DNA from: an uncultured Candidatus Saccharibacteria bacterium
GTDB taxonomy: Bacteria; Patescibacteriota; Minisyncoccia; Phycocordibacterales; UBA918
Direction: 5' to 3'
DNA length: 64,000 bases
NCBI GenBank assembly: GCA_964350985.1
Contig: CAYGLK010000001.1
Coordinates: 228,528-292,527, forward strand
Shown: piece by piece, positions 4,951 through 41,214 of the stretch
Position numbering within the stretch: position 1 is the first letter of the stretch
Layout of the letters: each line of letters starts with the position of its first letter
Position numbers and translations under genes: made by a program
Notes under the pieces: generated by a model
The model's database searches: none
The model's input: only the letters and a program-made list of their open reading frames with translations
What the model was told of the DNA's origin: nothing

Positions 4951-5030
4951 AAAAGAAAAACGCCCGAAGGCGTTTTTCTTTATGGAGATTAGATGTTAAT
5001 CGCAAGAGTAGGGCTCCAACACGGGGCTGA
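4951..5030. repeat. 80-bp direct repeat copy 1 (contains bidirectional terminator hairpin cgcccgaaggcg + T-run)
   Basis: about 95% identical to 6091-6171; aaaagaaaaacgcccgaaggcgtttttctttatggagattagatgtt..agggctccaacacggggctga. Confidence 0.8.
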
Positions 5031-5102
5031 TACTTGCTGAGGGTATGTTAAGAGTACGATGTTGCCTGCAAACGTACTGTCCGGCTGAAGCCTGGGTTTT
5101 TT

Positions 5103-5135
5103 AGATATAGAAAAACCCCGGTTATTAAGCCGGGG
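5103..5135 (-). terminator. rho-independent terminator for the 5182-5892 gene
   Basis: ccccggcttaataaccgggg hairpin followed by T-run on the minus strand. Confidence 0.5.
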
Positions 5136-5181
5136 GTTACAATCGTAGTATTGGAGTAGATACCAGACTACCTGGTGCTAC

Positions 5182-5892
5182 TTAAGGACCTACGTTCTCC
5201 TTATTTTCAAAAATTGCTTCCGCGGACCACCCTCTATCCCAGAAGTTCATGGGGTAGTTGTCTCCTGTCTCCTCGAGGAGTTTTTGGCAAACCCGAGGAT
5301 CAGGGTTGGTGAGACGTTCCCTTATAACCACGAGCGCATCAAGCAGCACTGAATCATGCTGCGCGATGATTGCCAGTTCCCACACTTCATGGGAATGCTT
5401 GACCCTTGTTATAAGGGTTGGGATGAAAGGGTCACCTGTAGTGTCCCAAGGGTGCTTTGCCTCCGTCTCGAGTAAAATCTCTGACGCTTGGCGATGGTGC
5501 CAAAAGTGACGACCGATGTCCCCTGTGTTGTTCACGGCGAATGATGTTCGTGCCCCTTCGGCACTTACCTCAAACTCTCCCCACTCCGCCATTTTTTTTA
5601 TTGTTATGCAAGAGTTCAGAACCCAAACAACAAGGGTATCTCCCTTGAAGGAGATGCCGTCCGTGCCGAAGCTGTCCGTGTGACTGCGGCTGAACTCGAT
5701 GGGTGTATCATCGATCCATGCCTGTAAGGCTCTTCGGCATTCGGTGACATCCTCCTCACTTTCAAGTGGGGCAGTCGCGCACACACTGCCCGAAATCGCT
5801 TTGAAGAGATTTCGGGGGTCCGGCTTGCTTTTGAAAAAAACTTTCATTTGTTCCTCCCCACCCATCACTCGCATCAGAATTGATGCTGTCAA
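5182..5892 (-). CDS. hypothetical protein, GC-rich cargo gene
   Basis: 236 aa, about 50% GC versus about 38% flanks; Trp/His-rich; no family recognised; bracketed by 80-bp direct repeats. Confidence 0.5.
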   Translation of the reverse strand: MTASILMRVMGGEEQMKVFFKSKPDPRNLFKAISGSVCATAPLESEEDVTECRRALQAWIDDTPIEFSRSHTDSFGTDGISFKGDTLVVWVLNSCITIKKMAEWGEFEVSAEGARTSFAVNNTGDIGRHFWHHRQASEILLETEAKHPWDTTGDPFIPTLITRVKHSHEVWELAIIAQHDSVLLDALVVIRERLTNPDPRVCQKLLEETGDNYPMNFWDRGWSAEAIFENKENVGP

Positions 5893-6090
5893 TGTAGGTG
5901 TCCTGTATTCAGGACTTTATCTTATATAGACACATATAAAACAAAGTCCCAAATACAGAATTATAGAGAACACTGGTCAGAATTTTTTTAGCGTTTATAT
6001 AAAGAACGCTATATATATTGTATCATAAATATAGTCTCATGTCAAACATCGCGGCGCTAGATTCAACATTTAATGTCAATATTTAAACCA

Positions 6091-6171
6091 AAAGAAAAAA
6101 CGCCCGAAGGCGTTTTTTCTTTATGGAGATTAGATGTTCATCGCTAGAGTAGGGCTCCAACACGGGGCTGA
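6091..6171. repeat. 80-bp direct repeat copy 2
   Basis: copy of 4951-5030; overlaps the 3' end (last about 14 codons) of the 6130-6543 ORF. Confidence 0.8.
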
Positions 6172-9567: not shown

Positions 9568-10158
9568 TTACCAAGGCAGTTCGAAATTTGAAAATTCGGG
9601 GAGAAGCTTTGTATTATTTAATAGTCTTGAAGCAACTTCGGCGTGTGAGAGCGCACCTGTCAGTGCGTTGTGTGGTTCTGGTTCGTCTGGGATACCGCAG
9701 TAGTTGAGTACTACGTCTAAGTTAAGTGCGCTGCGACGGTGTTGTGGGTCTATTGGTGGAGTCAGTCCCCTTTTAACCATATGCATCCAACAGAGAGTGT
9801 GAGTGTCTATTGTTCGATAAGCTAAATCCCAAGAGATTCCTGCTCGTTCGCAAGCGGCTCTAGCCATATCACGATCAAAAGAAATATTTTGACCTAGAAG
9901 AGTCCTGTCTTCCATATGTTGAGACCATTCTAAGAAAGACTGGATTAGCTCAGCTTCAGTCTGTTTATTGGGATCATTAATTTCTGCTTCAGTATAACCA
10001 TTTACTTCCATGGCACCATCCATAATATGTGCTCCATCCCAGATACGGCATTCGCCATAAAAACGATTTTCCGGATTAGAAAAATCTAAAGCTCCAATCG
10101 AGACAATAGAATGTTTTTCATAGTTTGTACCCGAAGCTTCTATGTCGATGACGATCAT
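9568..10158 (-). CDS. DEDD-family 3'-5' exonuclease
   Basis: Exo I motif VIDIEASG; Exo III-like H..A..D near the C-terminus. Confidence 0.55.
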   Translation of the reverse strand: MIVIDIEASGTNYEKHSIVSIGALDFSNPENRFYGECRIWDGAHIMDGAMEVNGYTEAEINDPNKQTEAELIQSFLEWSQHMEDRTLLGQNISFDRDMARAACERAGISWDLAYRTIDTHTLCWMHMVKRGLTPPIDPQHRRSALNLDVVLNYCGIPDEPEPHNALTGALSHAEVASRLLNNTKLLPEFSNFELPW

Positions 10159-11012
10159 ATTTTTGTAAGAGAATTATTTTTTGCTAGTAGTCTTTCATTA
10201 CTCATTTTATCATAGAGGCCAGCTAAAGCCGCTCCGTAAAAAATGATGGCTGACAAAACATACACCCAGATCAATAAGACTAAGATTAATCCAGCTCCAC
10301 CGTAGAAGTTGAGTAATGGAGTACTTACTACATAAACATAGACTAGATATTTTGCAGCCATAAATAATGTAGCTGCCACTAACGCACCGATAAGACTACT
10401 TTTCAGATTGGGACTTCGTCTGTATAGAAAGCGATATAGAAAAGTGAATAATGCAGTAGTTGAGAGGAATAATAGAATTGAATAAAAAATGGAATCATCA
10501 TTCAAGTTAAAACGGCTTAAAACAACCTGAAGTCCAATGATAGTAATAAGATAGAGTTGTAGGACAAAGATAAAACCAATTGAACGTAGGCTGCGGAAGA
10601 TCCAGCTTATTATTCCTTGGTCTTCTATGCCCCACAGTCTTTGGAAGCCAGAACTAATTACATTTAAGGCTACAACAGAGATACTGGAGAAAATAATAAT
10701 ACCGATAATTGGGATAGTAAAAGAATTTGTCTGGATCGTCAGGTTGTCGACAGCTAGACCGAGGATCTTAGCTAGATCAGGACTGAGGACTTCTCCCCAG
10801 TTAAAGAATACCTGTGCTGTAAACTCTACTCCATATATTAGACCAACTAAAGTTAGCGAGATTAGGATCAGGGGAATAATCGCCAGTGGCGCGTAGTATG
10901 AAAAAGCGGCGGCGTAGTAAACCATCTCGTGATCAATCCAAAGAAGTGCGGCTTTATATAAATTATTTAGAAATCGAAACATGCCAGTACATTCTATTGT
11001 AAACCAGGACAA
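10155..11012 (-). CDS. YihY/BrkB family membrane protein
   Basis: 285 aa, 6 TM, typical YihY topology; overlaps neighbours by 4 and 19 nt (operon). Confidence 0.55.
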   Translation of the reverse strand: MSWFTIECTGMFRFLNNLYKAALLWIDHEMVYYAAAFSYYAPLAIIPLILISLTLVGLIYGVEFTAQVFFNWGEVLSPDLAKILGLAVDNLTIQTNSFTIPIIGIIIFSSISVVALNVISSGFQRLWGIEDQGIISWIFRSLRSIGFIFVLQLYLITIIGLQVVLSRFNLNDDSIFYSILLFLSTTALFTFLYRFLYRRSPNLKSSLIGALVAATLFMAAKYLVYVYVVSTPLLNFYGGAGLILVLLIWVYVLSAIIFYGAALAGLYDKMSNERLLAKNNSLTKI

Positions 11013-11362
11013 TTTGCTGCTGGTTTATACCCGGCTGCTTCAGCTTCGGATATTGAGGTAAAAGTAATTTTGTTTTCCTGCTTGATTTGTTTAGCTCCAG
11101 GACAGGTGCTGAGGTGATACTTGGTGCCAGATTTTGAGGCTATCAGGAGAGCACTCTGAGTGTCTGCAGACCTGGTATCCGCTGTGTTGCTCGGCTGAGG
11201 CACTACTCTTGTTTCAGTTACTTGAACCAAAGGCTTCTCTGTTACAGTCTCAGGAGCCGCTGTTAGCCTACCAAGACCAAAGGCTATAAGCCCAACGATG
11301 ATTATAAGACAGCTGTAAAAGAATTGGTCATTCCTTATTAGGGCCTTGAGTTTTTCTGACAT
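10994..11362 (-). CDS. small secreted protein with C-terminal Cys-rich (Ada-like metal-binding) motif
   Basis: N-terminal TM/signal; C-terminal YHLSTCPG...ANCPG pattern. Confidence 0.35.
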
Positions 11363-11408
11363 ATATCGTATACTCCACCAGTTATATTTCGTTTATTTAT
11401 TATATACT

Positions 11409-11690
11409 ATGGCAACCAAGAAAGCTGGCGGAACAGCTAAAAACCTCCGAGATTCACAACCTAAATATCTAGGTATCAAAAAAACTGCTGGTCAAGCGGT
11501 AAATCCAGGTAATATCATTGTTCGACAACGTGGGACAAAGATTGAAGCTGGTAAAGGCGTCTTGATTGGTAAGGACCATACTCTCTTTGCAGCTATTGCT
11601 GGTATTGTTTCTTTCCGGAACATGCGAAAGACTCGTTTCAATGGAGAAAAGGTAGTGAAGAAAGCAGTTGATGTAATCGCTGCAGCTTAA
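11409..11690 (+). CDS. rpmA: 50S ribosomal protein L27
   Basis: MATKKAGG...GKDHTLFA signature; the track ORF (11346) has a spurious 21-aa N-terminal extension; about 15-aa C-terminal extension relative to typical L27. Confidence 0.9.
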
Positions 11691-11704
11691 CCCAAAAAGT
11701 TTAA

Positions 11705-11743
11705 GCACAAAAAACGCCAGGCTTTGCCTGGCGTTTTTTGTGC
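11705..11743. terminator. perfect 17-bp-stem palindromic bidirectional terminator, copy 1
   Basis: gcacaaaaaacgccagg-ctttg-cctggcgttttttgtgc; identical 41-mer recurs at 13788-13828. Confidence 0.8.
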
Positions 11744-11752
11744 TCTAAATAA

Positions 11753-13738
11753 CTACCACCAAATTCTGTTCCCTAACGTCTTTTTCATCTCAGCTCTGGT
11801 CATTTCTCCGAAGTAGCCGGTTGCTGGAGTGATTCCATGAATTATCTGATAGTTTGATAACGCTTTAGCTGTCTCTGGACCAAAGTAACCAGTTGCTCCA
11901 GCAGGAATAGAATAGCTTAGCGAAATTAGTAGTTCTTGTAAGGCAGTGACATCAGGACCTTCATCTTCTAGGGTTAAGTCTCGGATAGGCAAAGGTACTG
12001 GAGTGAGGTCAATGCCGGTCAGGTCTCTATATCTAGCTATAATAAGAGCAAGATCTTGTCTGAGTCGATCAAGTGTAATACTAAGTGAGATCGGGGTTGC
12101 TGGAATATTAAATTTTTCTTCAAGTTCAACGGCCGCTTCGATGTTTCCGTTGTCTCTGAGATTTTTTGCTCTGCCTTTAGCTGAAGTGCCACTGCTGCCA
12201 CTTGACTCTTTAGCTTCACGAGTGACTGTTCTGGTGGTTGTCACTGTACTAGAAGCTGCGACAACTGGACTGCCATTAAAATCAACTACTGTCCCTGAGT
12301 CAGTGACACTATAGAGTAGTTCATAGACTCCTGGATCTTCTAATACTTCTCCTGTGACTTCAATATCGTCATTGAGGTTACCGTCTTTGATGTCATTTGC
12401 TGAGACTGTGCCGAAGTCAATGGTAAAGCTGTCATTAAAATCTATTTCTACATCAAGTGGAGTCACTGTGAGATTTGGGGGGTTGTCGATGAGGGTAAGT
12501 TCGTTACCACTGACATAGCCAGAAATATTTGAGTCGGTGATGAAGACATTGCCTTCGGTTCCGGAGTTTGTTGAAGCGGTAACCCCTCTAGAATAAGAGT
12601 TTGCAAAGACCGTTGAATTTATGACCGTAACGTCTCCAGAAGCACCAGAGTAACCGTATGAACTAACGTAATTACCTATTGTTGAGTTGGTTACAATAAC
12701 ATCCCCACCGTCGTTACCGTAGGTAAAAGACGAAACACCTAAGGTCACTTCTGAGTCGGTGACAGTAACATCACCAGCATCTATACCTCCTGCTGAATAT
12801 ATGTAGCCATCTACATACGAATCGTTAACAACAATAGTCCCTCCATTTCCAGAATAACCAACAGATTGTACTTGTCCTCCAATATCAGAGCCGTAGATGC
12901 TCACAGAACCTGAATTAAGTGAACCGTCTGATTCTACATAATCAGTTACGTTAGAGTCAGTGATTTCGATATCTCCAGAGTCACCACCAGTAGCTTCAGA
13001 TTGAACTAACTCAGTTACTTCAGAATCAGAAATATCGATGTCTCCGCTACTTAAAATACCAGACGCTCTTACAGAACCTGTAACAGTTGAATTATTGGAA
13101 ATGGTGATGTTGCCAGAATTGCTAGTATCTGAAACTGAAGCTATGGAACTATTAATTATTGAGTTTTCAATTACTACATTACCAGAATCATCGCTACCTA
13201 ATGATGAAACGTTGGAAACTACACTAGAAGATACACTGGAATCAATAACAGTAATATCACCAGCTGTACCAGCACTTGCTCCAACAATTGAGTATACCCC
13301 ACCTCCAATATTTGAATTTTGAATATATATCTCTCCAGCATTACTGTCATAAGAGTATGAACTAACATAAGCCCCAACTTCTGTATTTATCACCTCAATG
13401 TCTCCAGAATTTCCTGTAGCGTTATATGATTGTACAAAACCACTAATATTCACAACATCAGTGACTACTATATTATGTCCTCCAGTACTTTGAACATTTC
13501 CATTAATACTATAAAGTCCTTGTCCATCAATAGTGATATTATTGGCAGTAATAATACAGTTACCGGCAGTGGTGGTAGATAGTTGGTAGATGGTATCTGC
13601 TTGGTCTAAATCAGTACTACAGTCTGTGACAGCAGCCACAGCTTTAGGTAGTTCCCTGTTCCAGATAAGTGCGTAGACAAATATAACTATGATAGTTGAA
13701 CTACCTAATCGAAGAATAGTCTTTTTCATATTTATCAT
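11753..13738 (-). CDS. secreted parallel-beta-helix repeat surface protein with C-terminal peptidoglycan-binding (PG_binding_1-like) repeats
   Basis: N-terminal signal/TM; more than 15 degenerate repeats of the GDI/VTVxDSxV type; C-terminus has two ...TGYFGxxTxxA... motifs. Confidence 0.6.
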   Translation of the reverse strand: MINMKKTILRLGSSTIIVIFVYALIWNRELPKAVAAVTDCSTDLDQADTIYQLSTTTAGNCIITANNITIDGQGLYSINGNVQSTGGHNIVVTDVVNISGFVQSYNATGNSGDIEVINTEVGAYVSSYSYDSNAGEIYIQNSNIGGGVYSIVGASAGTAGDITVIDSSVSSSVVSNVSSLGSDDSGNVVIENSIINSSIASVSDTSNSGNITISNNSTVTGSVRASGILSSGDIDISDSEVTELVQSEATGGDSGDIEITDSNVTDYVESDGSLNSGSVSIYGSDIGGQVQSVGYSGNGGTIVVNDSYVDGYIYSAGGIDAGDVTVTDSEVTLGVSSFTYGNDGGDVIVTNSTIGNYVSSYGYSGASGDVTVINSTVFANSYSRGVTASTNSGTEGNVFITDSNISGYVSGNELTLIDNPPNLTVTPLDVEIDFNDSFTIDFGTVSANDIKDGNLNDDIEVTGEVLEDPGVYELLYSVTDSGTVVDFNGSPVVAASSTVTTTRTVTREAKESSGSSGTSAKGRAKNLRDNGNIEAAVELEEKFNIPATPISLSITLDRLRQDLALIIARYRDLTGIDLTPVPLPIRDLTLEDEGPDVTALQELLISLSYSIPAGATGYFGPETAKALSNYQIIHGITPATGYFGEMTRAEMKKTLGNRIWW

Positions 13739-13787
13739 TATAACTTTTTTTCTAGTTTTTCTAACAACTTTTCACCAAAATTAAAAT

Positions 13788-13828
13788 ACAAAAAACGCCA
13801 GGCTTTGCCTGGCGTTTTTTGTGCTCTA
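13788..13828. terminator. palindromic terminator, copy 2
   Basis: 41 nt identical to 11705-11745. Confidence 0.8.
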
Positions 13829-13837
13829 CTTCCCTAC

Positions 13838-23504: not shown

Positions 23505-24620
23505 TTACTCCTTTGTAGGCTTGTCCAAAACCAAGGTCTCATGTCCGGTACTTTCTCCAGAGATACGCACTACATCCTTATCTACCTTGGCTAATTCCTT
23601 GCTGGCAGCGTTGTAGTGATTGACGGTAGTACCAAGACTGTTCCCTACTTTTTCAAAATATTCATTATAAGCACTCAGATGTCGCGAGAGTTTTTCGACA
23701 TTAGCTTGTATCTCTTTTGCCCCCTCTTCTACCTTAAAGGCTCTAAAGCCGTAGAGGACTGACTGGAGATAAGCGGCAAAAGTAGTTGGTGACACAATAA
23801 TGACGTTCTTGTCTCTGTAGGCGTAGTCAATTAGTGAACGAGTGTTTACTTTAATAGAACCTACTTCATTTACAAGTAAGTCGTAATAGATCGCTTCAGC
23901 TGGGATATACATAAAGGCAAATGGTAAAGTACCATCCTTTGGTCGGATATATTTTGCTGTTTCATCAATTCTTTTCTTGAGGTCGTTTTTAAATTCTTTT
24001 TCTAACTCCAAACGACGCTGATCATCAGTTTCATCTACCAGACGACGATAATTATCTAGTGAAAACTTAGCATCAACCGGGATCATTCCGTCTTTGGTGA
24101 TAATGACAGCATCAACAGTTTCCCCTCCTTCAAAAAGGTATTGAAATTTATAAGCGCCAACCGGAAGGATATTCTCTAGAGCTAACTGCAGACTGGCTTC
24201 ACCGAGGTTCCCTCTTTGTTTTTGGTGCTTGAGTACCTTCTCAAGATTTTGTAGTTGCTCGGCGATGGTAAATACCTGCTTCGAACTCTCACTTACTTCT
24301 GACACGTGTTTCTGTACACCAAGTAGTTTTTCATTGATACTTTCTTGAATAGCACGAATTTGTTCGTTAACGTCTTTGTTGATCTCTTGCATCAGTTCCT
24401 TACTGTCTCTAAATTGCTGACGACTCCCTTCTTGCGCTAGACGATTACTCTCGCCCATCTGCTCACGCATACCACGAGAAAGTTCTTGAATCTGTTGCTG
24501 CATCAAAAGCAGGCTATCGTTATCAGTCGCTTTTTTCTCCGGACGGAAGAAAAAAACGTAAACTAGTAAGCCGAGAATTGCTACTAAGAGTAGCAAAAGA
24601 ATAATAATGATAGTGTCCAT
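23505..24620 (-). CDS. rmuC: DNA recombination protein RmuC
   Basis: N-terminal TM, long coiled coil, C-terminal RmuC nuclease-like domain. Confidence 0.75.
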   Translation of the reverse strand: MDTIIIILLLLLVAILGLLVYVFFFRPEKKATDNDSLLLMQQQIQELSRGMREQMGESNRLAQEGSRQQFRDSKELMQEINKDVNEQIRAIQESINEKLLGVQKHVSEVSESSKQVFTIAEQLQNLEKVLKHQKQRGNLGEASLQLALENILPVGAYKFQYLFEGGETVDAVIITKDGMIPVDAKFSLDNYRRLVDETDDQRRLELEKEFKNDLKKRIDETAKYIRPKDGTLPFAFMYIPAEAIYYDLLVNEVGSIKVNTRSLIDYAYRDKNVIIVSPTTFAAYLQSVLYGFRAFKVEEGAKEIQANVEKLSRHLSAYNEYFEKVGNSLGTTVNHYNAASKELAKVDKDVVRISGESTGHETLVLDKPTKE

Positions 24621-24772
24621 GCCGACTATTTTACCATGATAGCAAGCGAAGCTTGCTGTCCACTCTACATTGACAATAATGATATTTTCTTATTTAATTA
24701 AAAAAGAATCGCTAGGGATCGACTACAACACTCCTAAGATCTTTTTCACCCACCTGACAAGAGGGGTTTGTC

Positions 24773-25024
24773 ATGAAAAATGTGTTGGCCAAGATGGTCA
24801 AGTTCTTCGCTTTTCTGCTTTACCGCGGAGGAGTCTTTCTCTTCGTGGCAAGTCTGCCTATTTACTTCTCCAGGCAGTTTCCAGCCTTCGAACTGTCTTT
24901 CTTCGCTTTTTGCGGCCTCTCTGCTGTTGCTGGGGAGGTTTTGCGGGAAGTATACGAATACTATACCGCAGAGGAGTTGGACTGGAGACTTTTTCCAAAA
25001 AGGAAACGAGCGACCAGCCAATGA
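24773..25024 (+). CDS. small membrane protein, first gene of the GC-rich cassette array
   Basis: RBS gagggg 7 nt upstream; 83 aa with 2-3 hydrophobic helices; overlapping ORFs in other frames judged spurious. Confidence 0.4.
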   Translation: MKNVLAKMVKFFAFLLYRGGVFLFVASLPIYFSRQFPAFELSFFAFCGLSAVAGEVLREVYEYYTAEELDWRLFPKRKRATSQ

Positions 25025-25061
25025 TTTTACCGGTTTTGGCTGTGTCGACCAACCAGCCCAC

Positions 25062-25145
25062 GATCGCCGCTCTCCACGAGCGGCGGTCTTTCTTTTTTTC
25101 TTTTAAATATTAGTCACAAATATTGACTTTAGGTATAATTTATGT
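25062..25145 (+). promoter_or_regulatory. cassette junction module R1: terminator hairpin (cgccgctc-tccac-gagcggcg + T-run) fused to promoter-like ttgact..tataat
   Basis: near-identical copies at 26115-26197 and a degenerate copy at 27106-27185. Confidence 0.7.
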
Positions 25146-25222
25146 TATTATCTCAAAAGATCTGTATCTAACAACAGCTATGCTTATCTCATTCTATCTC
25201 TGCACTTTGACAAGGAATAAAG

Positions 25223-26086
25223 ATGAAAAATATAAATTGGAACGTTCTTTGGGACATTCTCTGCGAAGACATCAGTAGCAAGAATCTGAGGGGTCCAGAA
25301 ATTGTCAATTGGCAAAAGGTCTGCTTGTTTCACGCGTCTCTCCAGGCCATCGGAGTAATGTTTCTCTTTGCTTTAGGGGAAGCAAGCTATATCCCGGTAA
25401 TTGCAGGCCTGTTGTTTCTCTTAGCTGGCATAGCACCTACTGTGCTGGCATTTGCTTTGGATCTTTCGACAGTCGTGTCGGAGAGAGTACCTTCTTTTTT
25501 GGCACGAGCCAAAATGACTATCGGTCAATGGCGTCAGCAAAAGCGAACAGCTAAACATTTTGAGACACTCGGACAAAGAAAAATCAGTCCATATGTCTCA
25601 ATGGAGGGATCAATTGATCTGACGTCCATGTCGCAGTTGTTGGCAATTTGTCGCTCAGTTGTCCAGCAGCATTTCCGGTCACTTACTCTGGAGGAGCAGA
25701 TTTCCCTGATCGAAGTCTCGCACAAGTTTAAGGAAGGAAAGAAAGAAGTGATTTCGGTCACTGTCACCTTCCTTTATGAACGCAGTTTGAAAGTCCGTCG
25801 TGACGGCGTCGATCGTGATGTGCTAGTGCACTCCGGTCACACTATTCAGCTTTTTCCAGACGGGACAAGGATCGTTGACATTGAGCACGTGCTCTCGCAA
25901 GGCACCAGGATGCTGAGCGGTTTAGACGATGTACGAGCGCACGTCTTGAACGTAGCTCACCGACTGCTGGATAATGACATCGACGTCGGTTCGGCCGAAA
26001 AAGATGCGTCGTCCGTGGTGATGTTGGCTTCAATGCCAACTGGCCAAAGTCGGAAGAGCTCATCTTCAGATTCTGTTCTTGAGTAG
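25223..26086 (+). CDS. 2-TM protein with about 190-aa soluble C-terminal domain, paralog A
   Basis: about 52% GC; shares a block (VTVTFLYERSLKVRRDGVDRDVLVHSGH) with paralog B (VTVVTFVYRRCEQTVEDGVSHDRLVASAH). Confidence 0.5.
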   Translation: MKNINWNVLWDILCEDISSKNLRGPEIVNWQKVCLFHASLQAIGVMFLFALGEASYIPVIAGLLFLLAGIAPTVLAFALDLSTVVSERVPSFLARAKMTIGQWRQQKRTAKHFETLGQRKISPYVSMEGSIDLTSMSQLLAICRSVVQQHFRSLTLEEQISLIEVSHKFKEGKKEVISVTVTFLYERSLKVRRDGVDRDVLVHSGHTIQLFPDGTRIVDIEHVLSQGTRMLSGLDDVRAHVLNVAHRLLDNDIDVGSAEKDASSVVMLASMPTGQSRKSSSSDSVLE

Positions 26087-26114
26087 CCGGCACCGCTGGC
26101 TACTCACCACCATT

Positions 26115-26197
26115 GATCGCCGCTCTCCACGAGCGGCGGTCTTTCTTTTTTTCTTTTAAATATTAGTCGCAAATATTGACTTTAGGTATAATTTATG
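26115..26197 (+). promoter_or_regulatory. cassette junction module R2
   Basis: about 97% identical to R1. Confidence 0.7.
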
Positions 26198-26281
26198 CTA
26201 TAAACTAAATAGCAATTGTATTAAACCAGCACCCCGCTGTTTTTTGAATCGATCTTTAACAACAAACCTAGGAGGTGTCAG

Positions 26282-27070
26282 ATGAGTATCACTGGCGATT
26301 TTTATGAGGAGAGGTCAGACGACCTGGACACAAAGGAAGGAGGGCTGTTGTTATCGGTTCTTATTCTTTGGTTTGGCGCTGGAGTTGCTGCATGGCTAAG
26401 CTCTGATCCTGTGACTGGGTTTCAGACGGTCCTTCATGTTGTGAGCAGTTTCCTCTTCTTTCTCCCGTTCATCCCACTCATTGTTACTATACCGGCCGAT
26501 TTCTTGGTCGGTGTGCGTAATCATATCGACGGATGGTGGAATGACATCCAAGGATTCCTTGGGTCACGTCGGAGAAAAAAAATGGAATCTAGTACGCTTG
26601 AGCGGCTTGATCCAAGCAAGATTGAGCCGCACATTTCGAGTCCCTTGCCGGACCTGGGCAACGCTACTCACCTCAAGGAGATCTGTGTTGAGATTGTCCT
26701 GGATCAGTTGGGACGTAAGCTGGTCAGGGATGAGGAGGTTTATGTCCTCAGTTCTGAGCCGAAACCAGGTGGCAAAGTGACTGTTGTCACTTTTGTCTAC
26801 CGTCGGTGCGAACAGACGGTAGAGGACGGCGTCAGTCACGACCGTTTGGTTGCGTCGGCACATGTGGTCAGGCTTTTGCTCAACAGCTTGGCTAAGTGTG
26901 TCGACATATCTTGGGTCACTTCACTCACTCATAAGGAATTGGGTGATCTGGAGGATCCGGAGAGCTTTGTGACCAACGTCACCCAGAGGCTGGAAGGAGA
27001 CTTGCTGCCATGTTCGGCTGTACCAGCTACAGTCAGAAGCATGACTTCCAGGATTCCTCTCTCTGAGTGA
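26282..27070 (+). CDS. 2-TM protein, paralog B
   Basis: RBS ggaggtg; same architecture as paralog A and a homologous C-terminal domain. Confidence 0.5.
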   Translation: MSITGDFYEERSDDLDTKEGGLLLSVLILWFGAGVAAWLSSDPVTGFQTVLHVVSSFLFFLPFIPLIVTIPADFLVGVRNHIDGWWNDIQGFLGSRRRKKMESSTLERLDPSKIEPHISSPLPDLGNATHLKEICVEIVLDQLGRKLVRDEEVYVLSSEPKPGGKVTVVTFVYRRCEQTVEDGVSHDRLVASAHVVRLLLNSLAKCVDISWVTSLTHKELGDLEDPESFVTNVTQRLEGDLLPCSAVPATVRSMTSRIPLSE

Positions 27071-27105
27071 TTGCTCTCGTCTTGCGATGCTCGCGCACCG
27101 CCCCC

Positions 27106-27185
27106 GATCGCCGCTCTCCTCGAGCGGCGATTTTCTTTATTTAAATATTGGATGCAAACATTGACTAAATACATATTTTATAATA
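27106..27185 (+). promoter_or_regulatory. cassette junction module R3 (degenerate)
   Basis: gatcgccgctctcctcgagcggcga + T-run + ttgact, diverged from R1/R2. Confidence 0.55.
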
Positions 27186-27213
27186 TAAAATATCAAGTTC
27201 CTTAATTTTCAAT

Positions 27214-27267
27214 GATGAGACGAGCGAATTGCGGCTTATTTTATAGGCCTTAGCTCGCTCGTCTCAT
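27214..27267. other. long hairpin (11-bp stem gagacgagcga / tcgctcgtctc, about 29-nt loop) upstream of the repeat-peptide gene
   Basis: seen directly. Confidence 0.5.
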
Positions 27268-27314
27268 TCTGGACAAGTCGTTGCCGAACGGTTTTCGGTA
27301 TTGAGGACCATCAC

Positions 27315-27518
27315 ATGAACCAAAGCTTAAACCACCAACCGACGCTGGATCAGCTGGTTGCAAACGGTGAGCCTTTCCATGGCTTCTACCCGAAGCCGGC
27401 ACCTCAACCGCTGGTTGCAAACGGTGAGCCTTTCCATGGCTTCTACCCGAAGCCAGCGGCTCCGCCACCGGGACAGGATTGCTTCGACTACGTGACCCGC
27501 CCGATATTTGACGAATAG
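27315..27518 (+). CDS. small Pro/Gly-rich peptide with internal 19-aa tandem duplication (LVANGEPFHGFYPKPAxxP x2)
   Basis: 57-bp DNA tandem repeat at 27353-27397 and 27410-27455; GC-rich. Confidence 0.3.
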   Translation: MNQSLNHQPTLDQLVANGEPFHGFYPKPAPQPLVANGEPFHGFYPKPAAPPPGQDCFDYVTRPIFDE

Positions 27519-27642
27519 CGGCGTTCTTGCTATTCGAAATCGGACTGCTTTCATCTCATTCATTTGGGGTGGGCAGTCCATTTTTTATATTTCAATCAAA
27601 ATCTCCCTCTGTGATATAATTTCAATATTAAATTTGTTTTAT

Positions 27643-28095
27643 ATGTCAATTCACACTGATCTTAGAGTTAGCCTTAAAGAAGCGATGAAAGCTAAGGATG
27701 ATGTTACTTTGCGTACTGTTAGAGGTATTATGACTGCTTGTACTAACGAACTAGTCGCTACTGGAAGAACTCCACAAGACGAACTTAAAGACGAAGAAGT
27801 CCTAGCTGTTATTAAGCGTCTAGCTAAGCAGCGAAAAGAATCAATCGTTCAATACGAAGCAGCTAACCGTCCTGAACTAGCAGTACCAGAAAAAGAAGAG
27901 CTAGCTGTTTTGGAAGCATACTTACCTACTTTAATGTCTCAAGAAGAAATCAGACCAGTAGCAGAAGCACTTAAAGCTGAGCTTGGTATTGAGGACAAAG
28001 CGAAAATGGGAATGCTCATGGGAGCTGTTATCAAGAAGCTGGCTGGCCAAGCTGATGGAGCTGATGTTAAGGCTGTTGTTGAAAGTCTATTCTAG
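27643..28095 (+). CDS. GatB/YqeY domain protein
   Basis: YqeY-like sequence; extended -10 TGaTATAAT at about 27611; the track ORF N-terminal extension is judged spurious. Confidence 0.75.
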   Translation: MSIHTDLRVSLKEAMKAKDDVTLRTVRGIMTACTNELVATGRTPQDELKDEEVLAVIKRLAKQRKESIVQYEAANRPELAVPEKEELAVLEAYLPTLMSQEEIRPVAEALKAELGIEDKAKMGMLMGAVIKKLAGQADGADVKAVVESLF

Positions 28096-28237
28096 ATAGA
28101 ACCGTCGCAAACGGAAAATTTCTTTGTTGTCCTACGTAAAATATCCCTCACCGTACAATTAGTACAGCTCGTCATATTTTCCTTGTCCGCCGCGAACTTT
28201 CCTCGCTTACAGCGATTCTGGAAGATGGAAAATGAAA

Positions 28238-28272
28238 AAACCCTCGGACTCAAAGTCCGAGGGTTTTTATTT
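28238..28272 (+). terminator. rho-independent terminator
   Basis: aaaaaaccctcggactcaaagtccgagggttttta. Confidence 0.7.
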
Positions 28273-28374
28273 GTTCACTAAACTAGCGCTATTGACAACA
28301 CCTATAAAAATCGGTACTTTATGGAAGAAAAAGTTCCAATCCGTCCCAGTAGGGACTTTGAACGGAGTCAGGCC

Positions 28375-28980
28375 ATGAAAGCCAATAGTTATTTGATAGC
28401 GTTATTTCTCCTCGGGCTGATGTTTGGGCACGAGGCCTTCGCCGCTGAAGTGGAGTCAAAACCACAGGACGAGGTTGTGACTAGTACTGGCGAAAGATTT
28501 CAGTACTGCTCTGCCGACCGATGTTTGAGTGAGGGAGAAAAAGTAATTGTCTTACCCTCACGGTGCGAGTACGTCAGGCAGTCACTCTTCTTCCAGCAGA
28601 AGAACTGCTACTCGGCTGAAGTGGTGTATGTCACAGAAGCAGATCTGGTACGTGAAACTTCTGTTGCAGAAAAGCCAGAACACGTAATTCGAGTCCCTAT
28701 AGTGGTGGTGATGTTATCAATGATGCTGATGGTAGCAACGATGTTATTGATACGGTTTGAGCCAAGGGCCGAATCTCTCTCCTTCATCGCCTTTATGGCC
28801 ACCAGCGCTGCTCTCCTATTCACTTTAACTGAACCCACATCTCCTGTATTTGCTGTCTTAGGCGGCTGCATTGCCTCCGTCGCCGCCACCGCCACCGCCG
28901 ATCTAACAAAATTAAGATCGTTCTATACTTTCGCGACCATACACTTGGTCTCGATGACGAGTTATCTGTATTTGGCTTAG
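28375..28980 (+). CDS. secreted/membrane protein, unknown (GC-rich islet)
   Basis: signal peptide MKANSYLIALFLLGLMFGHEAFA, Cys-containing ectodomain, 2-3 C-terminal TM helices; about 50% GC. Confidence 0.4.
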   Translation: MKANSYLIALFLLGLMFGHEAFAAEVESKPQDEVVTSTGERFQYCSADRCLSEGEKVIVLPSRCEYVRQSLFFQQKNCYSAEVVYVTEADLVRETSVAEKPEHVIRVPIVVVMLSMMLMVATMLLIRFEPRAESLSFIAFMATSAALLFTLTEPTSPVFAVLGGCIASVAATATADLTKLRSFYTFATIHLVSMTSYLYLA

Positions 28981-29038
28981 TAAGATCCACCAAATCAAGA
29001 TCGCTTTCGCCGTCCTGCTCATGCAGGGCGGTTTTCTT

Positions 29039-33968: not shown

Positions 33969-34040
33969 GGTCCCATCGTCTAACGGTCAGGACATCAGGT
34001 TTTCATCCTGGAAATCGGAGTTCGATTCTCCGTGGGATCA
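33969..34040 (+). tRNA. tRNA-Glu (anticodon UUC)
   Basis: hand-folded cloverleaf: acceptor ggtccca/tgggatc, anticodon loop ttTTCat, T-arm cggag-ttcgatt-ctccg; followed by a terminator hairpin gcaccc-gttt-gggtgc + T-run. Confidence 0.75.
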
Positions 34041-34218
34041 CGAGTACAAAAATGCGCACCCGTTTGGGTGCCATTTTTGTACGTGACCCAAGAGAAAAGT
34101 GCATTTGCACTTTTCGTGAGAATCGAACCGCCGGAGCGATGTGAGCTTGCGAACGAGTGAGGTGTATCCCGCGGCACTTGCTAATTTATGAGTGGAACGA
34201 AATAAACTAGCTTTGTGA

Positions 34219-34303: not shown

Positions 34304-35143
34304 TCAACGGTTCGGAGTAACTCGCAAAAGCCGCACTGACACAATTTCGTAGTTGATCACCCCAAGGATTGCACCGGTGACGGCGCCAATGATGGCGCTG
34401 CCAAACGAGTATCCAATGACAGCGCCAATCGTTGCATCAACGAAACAGACTGTACGTCGTTGTGAGTGGATGAAGACAAACACACTAACGGCAAATTGGG
34501 AGGTTGCCCGCCACACTTCGCGCCCTCTTGTGATTACAGTTGGCACCGCGCGTTTGATTGCTGGCGGCGACTCTACTGCAGCCTTCTTCAATCCGCGCAA
34601 GGCTGCAACTGTCACAGCGATTGGATTGAATTTGAGAAACAGGCTCTTTCCTGTCTCAACGATAGAACTAAGTAGCTCGTCACGCCTAGCCGGGCTAGCG
34701 TCCTTCTCGGATTGCAAAATCATAGCTATTACACCCCAGGCGTAGAGAACTGCAAACGCTGAAATCCATAGCACGCAATACAACGTGAACAAAATACCCG
34801 ACATAGGAATGTCGTCATTGAAAAACACAAACACTGGGCAGACAAGAGCTGACAAAGAACAAACTGTCGTGACTGTGCCGCCTGCGAATGTTCCGAAGGC
34901 CTTCCACCAAAGCCGATCAGGGCGCCAGGTGATCGTGCTGTGGTATGAGTGAGCAACTCCGGAGCAGAAGTGCCTAAAGTCGATCGCGACGTATGCCGCG
35001 ATACCGCCAGCTAGTGCACCAATGCCCCACAGACTTGATCCATACTCGAATCTTATCGAGATCTCAAGAGCCGTCAATGTGCCGATGAGAGCGCCGAGAG
35101 CACACGCAAAGGCGATCGAAAGCCAACCACTTGTCATCTTCAT
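34304..35143 (-). CDS. polytopic membrane protein, unknown (GC-rich islet, about 53% GC)
   Basis: 279 aa, 6-8 hydrophobic helices; antisense ORFs judged spurious. Confidence 0.45.
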   Translation of the reverse strand: MKMTSGWLSIAFACALGALIGTLTALEISIRFEYGSSLWGIGALAGGIAAYVAIDFRHFCSGVAHSYHSTITWRPDRLWWKAFGTFAGGTVTTVCSLSALVCPVFVFFNDDIPMSGILFTLYCVLWISAFAVLYAWGVIAMILQSEKDASPARRDELLSSIVETGKSLFLKFNPIAVTVAALRGLKKAAVESPPAIKRAVPTVITRGREVWRATSQFAVSVFVFIHSQRRTVCFVDATIGAVIGYSFGSAIIGAVTGAILGVINYEIVSVRLLRVTPNR

Positions 35144-35357
35144 GGTTTCCTCTACTTTTCTTATCTAGGCACATGCCTAGATTTCTATAATTTTATACCA
35201 CACTTAATCTAACCCTTCAATAGCTACGTAATAGTTCGATATCTAGGTGACCGTCATCACATTGTTGTCATGACGATCTTCTGCGCCACCGACGAATGAA
35301 CTCAACGCCGGTGCGTCACCCCCCGCATATTTGCGGATGTTGTTGTTTATTACATCT

Positions 35358-35812
35358 TTTACAATCCGGTTCCAATTCGTACTACATAGGGTCACAGAGG
35401 TAAGAAAATAACCACAAAGCAAATGCTTTGTGGTTATTTTCTTAGCAAAGCAACTTGAGTCGCTTGCGGCCTCTGTGACAGACGGAGACATGTTTTGACT
35501 ATTCCTAATGTCAAAACAACCGAGTCCGGGTAGGTGAGAAATGGGACTGTCACAATTATTTAAAACGTTAAAATTCCACACTTGTTTTACAATCCAGTTT
35601 CAATTCGTACTACATAGGGCCACACAGGTATAAACAAAGGCACTACTTCTTAAGAAGCAGCGTTTTGTTTAATAGAAAGCAAATGACTTTGCTTTCGTAC
35701 CGATGTGATTAGCGGAGCGATCTTTTCTGCTCTTCCCTAAAGCAGAAAAGGAGTGAGCTGGGTGAGAAATGGGCTTGGACCTATTTCGCAAGACTCATTG
35801 AGGTATATTTTG
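35358..35812. repeat. two tandem about 228-bp noncoding units, each with a conserved 46-mer (ttttacaatccRgtTYcaattcgtactacataggg..cacaSaggta) and different hairpins
   Basis: 46-mers at 35358-35403 and 35585-35630; ggtgagaaatggg at 35533 and 35761; terminator-like hairpins aaccacaaagc-aaat-gctttgtggtt and cttcttaagaag. Confidence 0.6.
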
Positions 35813-38943: not shown

Positions 38944-39483
38944 ATGCATACAAAATACGATCTAGAAACGGTAAAAGCATTAGTAGTTGTCTCAGCTAAG
39001 GAACACGGAAAGATATACGTCCTTGAAAATGGAGGCCTTAAAGGATTGTCGTACACAGAAGAACATCCGCCTACATACAGTGATAATGAAGGATTCTTAA
39101 CTCGTTCAACTGGAGGTCAACAACTAGGAAGTGGTAACGTGCTAGAAGATGCCGATGAACATAATTTACAGAAGTACATAAAAGCAATTACTACAGAATT
39201 GCGTGAAGTCGTCTTGAAGCATTCGCCGGAAGTTGTTTTTGTGATTGAACCAGAACATCTAAAGGGTCAGATAAAAACAAACTTAGTGGTTGATAATAAG
39301 ACTGCGGTAGAAGAGATTGCTTATGGTAACTATGTAGAAAAAGACACAGAAGTGATTTTTGATCTGGTACGTAAAGCTTTGACTGAAAGTAAAGATCCGA
39401 CTGACCCAGACTCAGTAGCTGCCGGAGAAAACGCTGAAGAAAAAAGAAAAATTCTAGAAGTTGGAAAAGAAGTTTCCGGGTAA
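38944..39483 (+). CDS. hypothetical protein
   Basis: 179 aa, acidic, no recognised motif. Confidence 0.35.
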   Translation: MHTKYDLETVKALVVVSAKEHGKIYVLENGGLKGLSYTEEHPPTYSDNEGFLTRSTGGQQLGSGNVLEDADEHNLQKYIKAITTELREVVLKHSPEVVFVIEPEHLKGQIKTNLVVDNKTAVEEIAYGNYVEKDTEVIFDLVRKALTESKDPTDPDSVAAGENAEEKRKILEVGKEVSG

Positions 39484-39676: not shown

Positions 39677-40276
39677 TCAGACCAGGTCTGCGTTGGCGCG
39701 AAGCATTGCTTCGGGCGTGTACTTTCCGCCGGTGATCTCGAAGAGATCTCCGCCAGGCTGAAGCCGCGGCATGAGATGCTCGTAGGTCTTGCCGATGATG
39801 TGCGATTCGGTGACCAGATCGTTGGCAGTGATCACGATCCCGTGCATGCCCAGGTACTGCTCGGGCGAGACCAAGAGTCCAGCGTCGGTGAGTGCGTTCT
39901 GCACGCCGAACTTGATGGTCTGCTCGATGCGGTCCTGCGTCGTGGCTGCCACTTCGAGTGCGGCCATCTTCAGCGGATTGTAGGTATCCGCGTCGCGGAA
40001 AACCATGATCTTGACCGGTGGATTGACCATCCGGACCAACTTGTTCATGCCGCCGGAAATGTCGCTCACGATGACCGGACTGATGTTTCCGAAACGCTCG
40101 CTGATCGGGGCTTCAACCGCACCGATGCGTATGCCGTCGTGGTTCTTGAGACCGATCTGCTGGTCGATGTCACAATCGGTGATATTGGTAACCATGAGAT
40201 CGCCGGCGAACGAGGTGGCAGAAACGCCCGAAATCAGAGCGGCCACAATGAATGTGGCCAGGGTATTCTTTTGCAT
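39677..40276 (-). CDS. secreted protein, unknown (GC-rich island, about 58% GC)
   Basis: signal peptide MQKNTLATFIVAALISGVSATSFA; antisense 39776-40282 ORF judged an artefact of the high GC. Confidence 0.45.
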   Translation of the reverse strand: MQKNTLATFIVAALISGVSATSFAGDLMVTNITDCDIDQQIGLKNHDGIRIGAVEAPISERFGNISPVIVSDISGGMNKLVRMVNPPVKIMVFRDADTYNPLKMAALEVAATTQDRIEQTIKFGVQNALTDAGLLVSPEQYLGMHGIVITANDLVTESHIIGKTYEHLMPRLQPGGDLFEITGGKYTPEAMLRANADLV

Positions 40277-40539: not shown

Positions 40540-41214
40540 TCACCGTCTTGCTCGATTTCGTTCTGCTCGTGCCAAGCGTGCGGCACTCGGCTGCCCTCCT
40601 TTTTTCTTTACCCTCTTGTTGTAGGCTTTCCGTTCGTTGCGGAATTTTCGTACAAACGGCATTGCCTCTTCTGGCATACAGTCATCCCACCCGAGGTTTA
40701 CTCGTTTGGCGTGCCTGAAGCAGCGCCAGAAACGCGATCCAATGCCACCACCCCGTACTATTTGCATAAACCTTCCACATTCGGGACATTGTGGACGGTT
40801 TTGTATTCTCACCTGGGCAATGGCTGCGCAGAGGCGTAAGCGGTACAAGAAGTTCTCAGTGCGATTCATTGGGTGGGAAAAATACAGAACTTCATTCCCT
40901 CGCTTGATGAGGACCCAGCCATTGTCACTGTCTCGAGCTTGCTCCATCGATTCGATGTAGCTTGTCCAGACAATTACTGTTAGACCCTTGGTCCTGAATA
41001 TGAAACCGACTTCCCGCTGGTCATGAGTCTCGGGAGGAATATCTGATTCTTTCACACCCTCCTCTCTTGCAACAATGTCCGGCCTCCTTTTCTTGCGGGC
41101 AATCCTCTTAAACCCTCTTTTCAACATTTTCCTTTCAAACTCTTGGAACCTTTCCTTGCCGAATAGGACTAGCGCTGGCATTTGCCTTCTCCACAAAGAG
41201 CACGAACAATACAA
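40540..41214 (-). CDS. Arg/Lys-rich protein with CPECG...C zinc-ribbon, possibly DNA-binding (transposase/phage-like remnant?)
   Basis: CPECGRFMQ...RFWRC; C-terminal KRVKKKGG..RARR tail; GC-rich. Confidence 0.35.
   Translation of the reverse strand: MYCSCSLWRRQMPALVLFGKERFQEFERKMLKRGFKRIARKKRRPDIVAREEGVKESDIPPETHDQREVGFIFRTKGLTVIVWTSYIESMEQARDSDNGWVLIKRGNEVLYFSHPMNRTENFLYRLRLCAAIAQVRIQNRPQCPECGRFMQIVRGGGIGSRFWRCFRHAKRVNLGWDDCMPEEAMPFVRKFRNERKAYNKRVKKKGGQPSAARLARAERNRARR

Follow-up and report, generated by a model that had tools for sequence, protein, structure and literature searches.

Why does an uncultured Candidatus Saccharibacteria bacterium carry four tandem GC-rich genes, each with what appear to be its own promoter and terminator, between the housekeeping genes rmuC and yqeY? 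The array lies in a 64,000-nucleotide stretch of this genome (GenBank assembly GCA_964350985.1, contig CAYGLK010000001.1, positions 228,528 to 292,527; hereafter the window), and two of its genes, A and B, are paralogs. A preliminary description, made from the letters of the sequence, had likened it to the immunity-gene or orphan-module arrays of polymorphic toxin systems, or to a phase-variable or expandable surface or exclusion gene family. Overall, we consider the array to be, rather probably, a set of moron-like, transcriptionally insulated accessory cassettes, inserted at the rmuC|yqeY junction and expanded there by tandem duplication. The morons of phages are autonomous promoter-gene-terminator units located between conserved genes, as described in the lambdoid-phage literature (Hendrix and colleagues). 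The array is more notable for this evolutionary context than for the function first proposed: the window offers a view, at single-slot resolution, of gene gain in a small, streamlined genome, in which cassettes of foreign composition would arrive with a promoter and a terminator, land between housekeeping genes, and expand locally.

A lineage-specific insertion between rmuC and yqeY

The surroundings of the slot comprise rmuC, L21, recR, yqeY, and truB (the names recR, L21, and truB come from matches in related loci). A search of metagenome contigs with the flanking RmuC protein yielded 80 related loci (56–89% identity), across which the gene order recR–L21–rmuC|yqeY…truB is conserved. For 17/17 loci with a RmuC ≥80% identical to that of the window, rmuC and yqeY are divergent and separated by 61–205 bp, compared to 3025 bp in the window. 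Since the slot is empty in these nearest relatives, the ~3-kb block at 24621–27645 is a lineage-specific insertion between two housekeeping genes. Relatives of its four gene products, or of a 219-aa membrane protein encoded downstream, were found at 0/80 related loci. In distant relatives, the slot is filled by ordinary genes with host GC content on the opposite strand, i.e., genes for a ~900-aa P-type ATPase, a DnaQ-like exonuclease, or a GGDEF protein, and gaps of 2.8–4 kb (L030, L033, L038, L042, L044, L050, L052, and others) or 0.8–1.7 kb (L077, L083, L089) were observed. The junction is thus variable across the wider lineage.

One locus, L004, holds a single-gene version of the slot: this short contig contains the start of rmuC, then a single gene of the A/B family (encoding P0005, 38% identical to A), then the start of yqeY. 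Its RmuC N-terminus is 63% identical to that of the window (nearest relatives, 60–68%), and its rmuC–P0005 intergenic region is 77% identical to the rmuC-proximal intergenic region of the window. Across the clade, the slot therefore contains 0, 1, or 4 genes. Cassette copy number, which the preliminary description proposed to compare between strains, is variable in this slot among relatives, and a tandem pair of family genes is also present in another genome (L011, see below).

A foreign composition of the array is supported as well. The block from S83 to the last gene (24773–27518) has a GC content of 47.8% (genes 48–57%, intergenic regions 38–43%) versus 40.2% for the window, and is the highest-GC 2.7-kb stretch of the window; the elevation reported earlier thus holds, while the figures given for it (52% versus 38%) do not. 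GC content at third codon positions (GC3) is 51–63% for the array genes versus 26–38% for the flanking housekeeping genes. The locus is therefore neither invariant and syntenic among related genomes nor equal in composition to its surroundings: slot content varies, and GC3 deviates from that of the flanks.

The four units differ in what they encode (Table 1). The small hydrophobic protein gene described at the 5′ end is present and encodes the 83-aa S83, for which we found no Pfam or PADLOC match and no exact copy in a 15-billion-protein collection. A and B are paralogs, as first suggested, with 30% identity over 199 aa (BLASTP, E 5e-18) and two hydrophobic segments each in a hydropathy scan. 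The last gene encodes a 67-aa peptide whose in-frame 57-bp tandem duplication could be verified (47/48 positions identical at period 57, 27353–27400 versus 27410–27457); no homolog of the peptide was found, the 80 related loci included. Its 5′ leader is predicted to fold into a long imperfect hairpin pairing the Shine-Dalgarno region, which suggests translational control, and has no Rfam match over 27190–27314. S83 and the 67-aa peptide were also considered as decayed copies of the A/B family; this was rejected, with no similarity in any frame by BLASTP or the family hidden Markov model (HMM).

Table 1 Features of the rmuC–yqeY slot (positions within the window; ORF, open reading frame; UTR, untranslated region)
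Feature	Coordinates	Strand	Details
rmuC, left flank of the slot	23505–24620	-	Pfam RmuC, E 2e-51
Unit 1 putative promoter	24670–24698	+	TTGACA 24670–24675, 17-nt spacer, TTTAAT 24693–24698; from sequence, aligns with the other unit promoters
Unit 1 gene, S83, 83-aa hydrophobic ORFan	24773–25024	+	From the ORF list; GC3 56%
Module copy 1	25062–25144	+	Stem-loop 25062–25088, T-run to about 25105
Module copy 1, putative promoter			UP-like AAATATT; −35 TTGACT 25123–25128; −10 TATTAT 25146–25151, immediately beyond the identical tract
Unit 2 gene, paralog A, 287 aa	25223–26086	+	Two hydrophobic helices, basic linker, conserved ~130-aa alpha+beta domain
Module copy 2	26115–26197	+	Terminator 26115–26141 plus T-run
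Module copy 2, putative promoter			−35 box 26176–26181; −10 TATAAA 26199–26204; shares an orthologous promoter and 5′ UTR with the P0005 gene of L004
Unit 3 gene, paralog B, 262 aa	26282–27070	+	Shine-Dalgarno AGGAGG in front
Module copy 3, degenerate	27106–27189	+	Terminator 27106–27132 plus T-run
Module copy 3, putative promoter			−35 TTGACT 27161–27166; −10 TATAAA 27184–27189
Peptide gene 5′ leader, structured, 125 nt	27190–27314	+	Inverted repeat; −46.8 kcal/mol, z −6.0
Unit 4 gene, 67-aa Pro-rich peptide	27315–27518	+	Recent in-frame 57-bp tandem duplication
Array-closing terminator-like hairpin and T-run	27536–27590	+	−26 kcal/mol, z −5.6; just upstream of the yqeY promoter
yqeY, right flank of the slot	27646–28095	+	Pfam YqeY, E 4e-40; neighbor of rmuC in the nearest relatives

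Terminator-promoter modules and proposed growth of the array

The array is punctuated by a repeated module whose hairpin, GATCGCCGCTCTCCWCGAGCGGCG, occurs exactly three times in the window (25062, 26115, and 27106), with a chance expectation of none. The three-copy arrangement of hairpin, T-run, and TTGACT reported earlier is thus confirmed, including the degeneracy of the third copy, although the module is 83 nt long. Copies 1 and 2 are identical at 82/83 positions in a base-by-base comparison, and repeat finding gave 94% identity over 98 nt for this pair and 74–79% for copy 3. The first base of the stem forms a sharp left edge of the module, identity is gradually lost past TTTATG, and outside the module units 2 and 3 are at background identity, coding DNA included. 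Each hairpin consists of a perfect 11-bp stem, a 5-nt loop, and a T-run, and folds at −20 to −22 kcal/mol (z −4.6 to −6.7). No further copy of the module turned up elsewhere in the window or in a GTDB set with one genome for each species; in a hairpin scan of these species genomes, a set outside which the source genome lies, the sole match was a chance one in Halomonas.

Consensus matches revealed the same promoter layout, TTGAC(T/A)-17 nt-TAT(T/A)A(T/A), in all three modules and in L004, with a TG-extended −10 box in copies 1 and 2, and this layout also precedes the 83-aa gene upstream (TTGACA-17-TTTAAT). The TTGACT and TATAAT boxes that had been paired at first stand 5 nt apart and do not form one promoter; the plausible −10 box is the hexamer 17 nt past TTGACT. 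With the boxes reassigned, consensus scans and folds bear out the proposed succession of one promoter, one gene, and one terminator, and we infer each unit to be transcriptionally self-contained, with a sigma-70-type promoter, a single gene, and an intrinsic terminator. The promoter and 5′ UTR of P0005 in L004 can be aligned with their counterparts at B and A, the …AACAACAAACCTAGGAGGTGTCAGATG region among them, and also with the rmuC-proximal promoter of the window. This alignment identifies the module's promoter half as the native promoter that the family has in this slot.

Given this relationship, the array has most likely grown from an ancestral unit composed of a promoter, a 5′ UTR, a family gene, and a terminator, of which the L004 slot still holds a single copy. 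Tandem duplication of this unit would generate the 83-nt module as its joint, in which the terminator of unit n is joined to the −35 half of the promoter that serves unit n+1, and the joints would later have been homogenised by gene conversion or unequal crossing-over. We regard this homogenisation as recent because modules 1 and 2 are near-identical while the coding sequences are saturated, and the 47/48-identical repeat in the peptide gene shows that local duplication is still ongoing. At the level of expression, transcription would stop at the stable hairpin of the module, which would form the 3′ end of each mRNA, and would begin anew behind it, yielding a monocistronic message per gene.

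The same repeats can be read in another way, in which the module is a recombination target, the units were acquired separately, and the repeats are insertion footprints. Acquisition would then have proceeded through Campbell-type or homology-facilitated integration of module-bearing DNA, or through a site-specific system acting in trans. Such cassette capture would account for 82/83-identical repeats that have a sharp left boundary and bracket gene A exactly, and it is in line with the foreign composition of the array and the polymorphism of the slot among relatives. Elsewhere in the window, a GC-rich ORFan (5182–5892) is associated with a ~95-nt direct duplication that is clearly an insertion by-product, and its promoter has AAATATTGAC in common with the modules. 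However, A and B are paralogous to each other, and the module's promoter half has its ortholog in the native promoter and 5′ UTR of the single gene in L004, which makes in-situ duplication the simpler explanation. We also found no recombinase or transposase among the Pfam-scanned flanking genes, a scan that did not extend to every ORF of the window, and the module occurs neither in the rest of the window nor in the GTDB species genomes. We thus consider cassette capture unlikely.

Integron gene-cassette arrays share with the array of the window tandem single-gene cassettes, a foreign composition, and a repeated palindrome-bearing element in between. Unlike attC, an imperfect palindrome with extrahelical bases, however, the repeat of the window has a perfect terminator stem, a short loop, and a T-run; moreover, every cassette has its own putative promoter, whereas integron cassettes are promoterless, and two of them are paralogous. 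In agreement with the statement of the preliminary description that the array is not an integron, we detected no attC-like repeat, and no IntI or other recombinase among the Pfam-scanned genes within about 10 kb (dnaB, rmuC, yqeY, and the genes for a YgjP-like protein, a Pif1-like helicase, and a FAD oxidase), with not every window ORF scanned.

Under the favored scenario of insertion followed by tandem duplication, the closest likeness is to phage morons. As in these, each unit has its own predicted sigma-70-type promoter and factor-independent terminator, the insertion lies between genes that are adjacent in relatives (gap of 61–205 versus 3025 bp), base composition deviates from that of the flanks (GC3 51–63% versus 26–38%), and the products are small and often membrane-bound accessory proteins. 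Unlike phage morons, the array is located in a bacterial chromosome between housekeeping genes and not in a prophage, it consists of four tandem units with a duplicated terminator-promoter joint, and no phage relatives of its proteins were found.

A rare protein family and the ribozyme-like elements at its other loci

The family to which A and B belong is very small: searched exhaustively with a HMMER profile, 1.84 billion cluster representatives yielded 13 proteins in total. Word-index searches with A, B, or the family profile recovered nothing beyond the query sequences or a single short contig, and profile-driven locus searches of metagenome and viral contigs yielded no family member. There was no Pfam, PADLOC, or PDB-sequence match for the family and no PHROG match for 13/13 members, i.e., the domain shared by the paralogs did not hit a well-characterised housekeeping family. 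The 13-member alignment revealed a variable N-terminal hydrophobic region (0–2 helices), a Lys/Arg-rich linker, and a conserved domain of ~130 aa, in which C143, E158, F183, Y185, S204, and L210 are invariant (A numbering), including a Phe-x-Tyr motif, and P123, R152, G195, H206, and S225 are near-invariant. An AlphaFold run with all 13 sequences reached a predicted local distance difference test (pLDDT) score >90 over residues 120–250, superseding a run with two sequences only (pLDDT 51). In this model, a single helix packs against a long curved antiparallel sheet, and we propose an NTF2/cystatin-like alpha+beta domain behind an N-terminal membrane anchor. The presence of conserved polar residues on this helix-on-sheet fold suggests a ligand-binding or catalytic pocket. 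The analysis thus defines a membrane-anchored protein family with a confident structural model.

Known NTF2-like and cystatin-like domains, such as those of VirB8/TraM/CagV or the intermembrane domain of ARC6/PARC6, likewise have one helix on a curved sheet and an N-terminal anchor. The family differs from these in that its sequence matches no family of Pfam or PDB, and Foldseek returned nothing significant for its model against PDB or viral structure models. As for topology, a Lys/Arg cluster is dense directly past the last membrane helix, and one member, P0006, lacks any membrane segment; the conserved domain is therefore probably cytoplasmic, following the positive-inside rule, unlike the periplasmic domain of VirB8. 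A VirB8-like type IV secretion component was considered and rejected, given this predicted location and no type IV secretion genes nearby.

This topology also bears on the proposal that the array represents a phase-variable or surface-exposed exclusion gene family. In favor of this proposal are the membrane anchors of the proteins and the turnover of paralogs. However, the basic cluster past the last helix and the anchorless P0006 would place the conserved domain inside the cell, so that the surface version of the proposal is not upheld. As for phase variation, all repeats are direct, the scanned genes include no invertase or other recombinase, and no long simple-sequence tract is present, the sole simple repeat being a T7 run. 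We regard this reading as extremely improbable.

At its other loci, the family follows no common neighborhood. On the longer contigs, the family gene stands amid housekeeping genes at a different site in each genome, e.g., in L003, where its GC matches the 52% of the host, it has a Na/H exchanger on one side and a UvrD/PDDEXK helicase on the other, and in L012 it is found between greA and PBP2/mreCB. The closest relative of B, P0004 (43% identity), is encoded in a 52%-GC genome at the GC of that genome. No recurrent partner gene is common to the family loci. Because of the rarity of the family, its patchy distribution, its foreign composition in the window, and a ribozyme or mobile genetic element-style context, A and B could have a membrane-tethered accessory or conflict function (e.g., phage exclusion), or could bind a small molecule in the NTF2-like pocket, suggestions that we offer as little more than informed guesses.

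These neighborhoods further weaken the initial interpretation of the array as immunity genes or orphan modules of a polymorphic toxin system. Small, fast-diverging, membrane-anchored paralogs of foreign composition, with a copy number that differs between relatives, would be expected of such a system. However, neither a toxin gene nor an N-terminal domain of the Rhs, CdiA, LXG, or Maf type is present in the slot or its flanks, the repeats are intergenic rather than repeated coding junctions of toxin C-termini, no PADLOC, Pfam, or PHROG match was obtained, and in other genomes the family occurs singly between housekeeping genes. This interpretation is thus very unlikely, and we do not retain it.

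Ribozyme-like elements were found at 5/12 family loci, with hammerhead-like elements at L011 and twister-like ones at L005, L008, L009, and L010. L011 (NCBI GCA_034680565.1, contig JAXOUH010040890.1, region 9875–13485) contains two tandem paralogs (10001–10819 and 11654–12385) that are 46% identical and lie in ~1650-bp units with conserved intergenic repeats. Each paralog is flanked by type III hammerhead-like elements (9907–9975, 10885–10938, 11558–11628, and 12451–12504), with Rfam E values of 7e-7, 1e-5, 0.011, and 0.013 and 27–42 bits (gathering score, 48.5). The three upstream copies are 98% paired, with five compensatory pairs in helices I and II, and the core (CUGANGA…GAAA) is intact in 4/5 copies, the exception being that at 10885. 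The additional hammerhead-like copy beyond the four flanking ones (about 13400–13470) is upstream of an unrelated 74-aa membrane ORF.

Twister-P1-like elements occur directly before and directly after the family gene of L008 (287–346 and 1055–1114), and downstream of it at L009:864–923 and L010:823–882 (Rfam E 1e-6 to 1e-3, 32–42 bits; gathering score, 67). The stems of this variant are 100% paired with three compensatory pairs. Both pseudoknots differ by compensatory changes from the printed Rfam consensus (UCCC/GGGA to UGAC/GUCA and GC/GC to AC/GU, as compared by eye), which explains the low Rfam scores. A variant-specific covariance model built from three copies of the L008, L009, and L010 elements gave an independent match at L005:928–1009 (44.5 bits, E 4.5e-11), and nothing in the other family loci or in 683 kb of 80 control loci. 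At L008, the upstream twister-like element begins right past a TTGACA-17-TATAAT promoter, and the downstream one stands between the family gene and a gene for a 165-aa membrane protein.

A further conserved element of ~60 nt lies between the family stop codon and the downstream ribozyme, just ahead of the putative cleavage site, whether twister or hammerhead (L005:871–929, L008:998–1055, L009:808–865, L011:10830–10888 and 12396–12453), and is also found at L013:940–993, where it ends at the contig edge. It contains a GAAAG…CUUUC hairpin (GAAGG…CCUUC in L013) and an apparent H-type pseudoknot with an A-rich loop, with covariation in both stems as judged by eye only; its two-hairpin fold is thermodynamically undistinctive (z −0.5 to −1.2). 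Lacking from the window and without a match in Rfam, it constitutes a candidate RNA motif beside the ribozymes.

For the window itself, no Rfam ribozyme was detected at E ≤ 10 within 24500–28400 or at E ≤ 0.05 across its whole length. The variant twister model found nothing in the cassette, its only match in the window being an insignificant 14-bit one (E 0.22) at 56474, outside the cassette, and a search of the intergenic regions of the window for ribozyme remnants found none. Nevertheless, a parallel can be drawn with ribozyme-flanked bacterial and prophage genes: single genes can be flanked by multiple hammerheads, which presumably cut long transcripts into mRNAs of one gene each (PMC3088659), and twister and hammerhead have common gene associations for which the reason is unexplained (PMC6765202). 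Like these (PMC3088659, PMC6765202), the array of the window would yield hairpin-ended one-gene transcripts; unlike them, it has no ribozyme match, and its punctuation is a terminator plus promoter, at the level of DNA and transcription. By homology of the flanked genes, the terminator-promoter module looks like a transcriptional counterpart of the ribozyme punctuation of its homologs, i.e., one tiny family is bracketed by twister, hammerhead, or a terminator-promoter joint, depending on the genome. We tentatively extend this to the idea, possible yet clearly on the speculative side, that the three are interchangeable insulation devices producing “RNA-level morons,” with the ~60-nt element as a new 3′-end-protecting or regulatory motif. 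This leads to a testable hypothesis, namely that selection acts on transcript insulation and not on the ribozyme itself. If the devices are truly equivalent, the family would provide a natural experiment on the purpose of bacterial self-cleaving ribozymes in their unexplained gene associations, and that purpose would be to give horizontally acquired accessory genes insulated, hairpin-ended, monocistronic messages.

Ribozyme-flanked single genes are typical of prophages (PMC3088659), and promoter-gene-terminator units of odd GC content would also be expected if the units were true phage morons left behind after the decay of a prophage or mobile element. However, there is no phage gene in or beside the slot, the 13 members have no PHROG match, viral contigs and viral structure models gave no match, and the family genes of L003, L012, and L011 lie in chromosomal housekeeping neighborhoods. 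A decayed element is thus a quite unlikely origin for the array.

Several points weigh against our preferred account of insulated cassettes expanded by tandem duplication. The promoters and terminators of the units are consensus matches only, and the cytoplasmic location of the conserved domain follows from the positive-inside rule alone. With S83 and the 67-aa peptide lacking similarity to the family, a four-fold duplication needs replacement or decay of units 1 and 4. The sharp-edged, near-identical 83-nt repeats around A fit the footprint of a recombination-inserted cassette equally well, and another ORFan of the window (5182–5892) is flanked by a ~95-nt duplication in that style. Finally, ribozymes occur at fewer than half of the family loci, most of these contigs being short, all of their matches score below Rfam gathering, and one hammerhead copy (L011:10885) has a core change (CUGAUGU).

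Other cassette-like features in the window

The ORFan at 5182–5892 (236 aa, minus strand, no Pfam match; window 4973–6171) is GC-rich and has its own promoter and terminator. The ~95-nt direct duplication that brackets it (core of 58 nt, 97% identity) consists of the end of the coding sequence of the upstream 137-aa gene (~40 nt) and its terminator, and looks like an insertion footprint. Its promoter has TTTAAATATTGAC in common with the array modules.

Downstream of the array, the gene for the 219-aa four-helix membrane protein (28321–28980; GC3 53%), a singleton in the protein collection, represents a further self-contained insertion (28100–29035), this time between yqeY and truB, two genes that directly or almost directly adjoin each other in the relatives L015 and L020. 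Before it stands a perfect 15-bp bidirectional terminator (28236–28268), and after it another terminator (29009–29032).

Duplicated elements also accompany genes elsewhere. A bidirectional terminator, AAAAAACGCCAGGCTTTGCCTGGCGTTTTTT, occurs with its flanks in two 87%-identical copies (11696–11756 and 13777–13837) that bracket a 661-aa protein with a peptidoglycan-binding domain (11753–13738, minus strand). A 64-nt direct repeat (35352–35415 and 35580–35643, 81% identical and 228 nt apart) adjoins a GC-rich ORFan without Pfam match (34304–35143, minus strand) and tRNA-Glu (33969–34041). Lastly, GC-rich ORFs without Pfam match at 38944–39483 (plus strand), 39677–40276, and 40540–41214 (both minus strand), with a local GC content of 47–49%, may be more cassettes of the same foreign-composition class.

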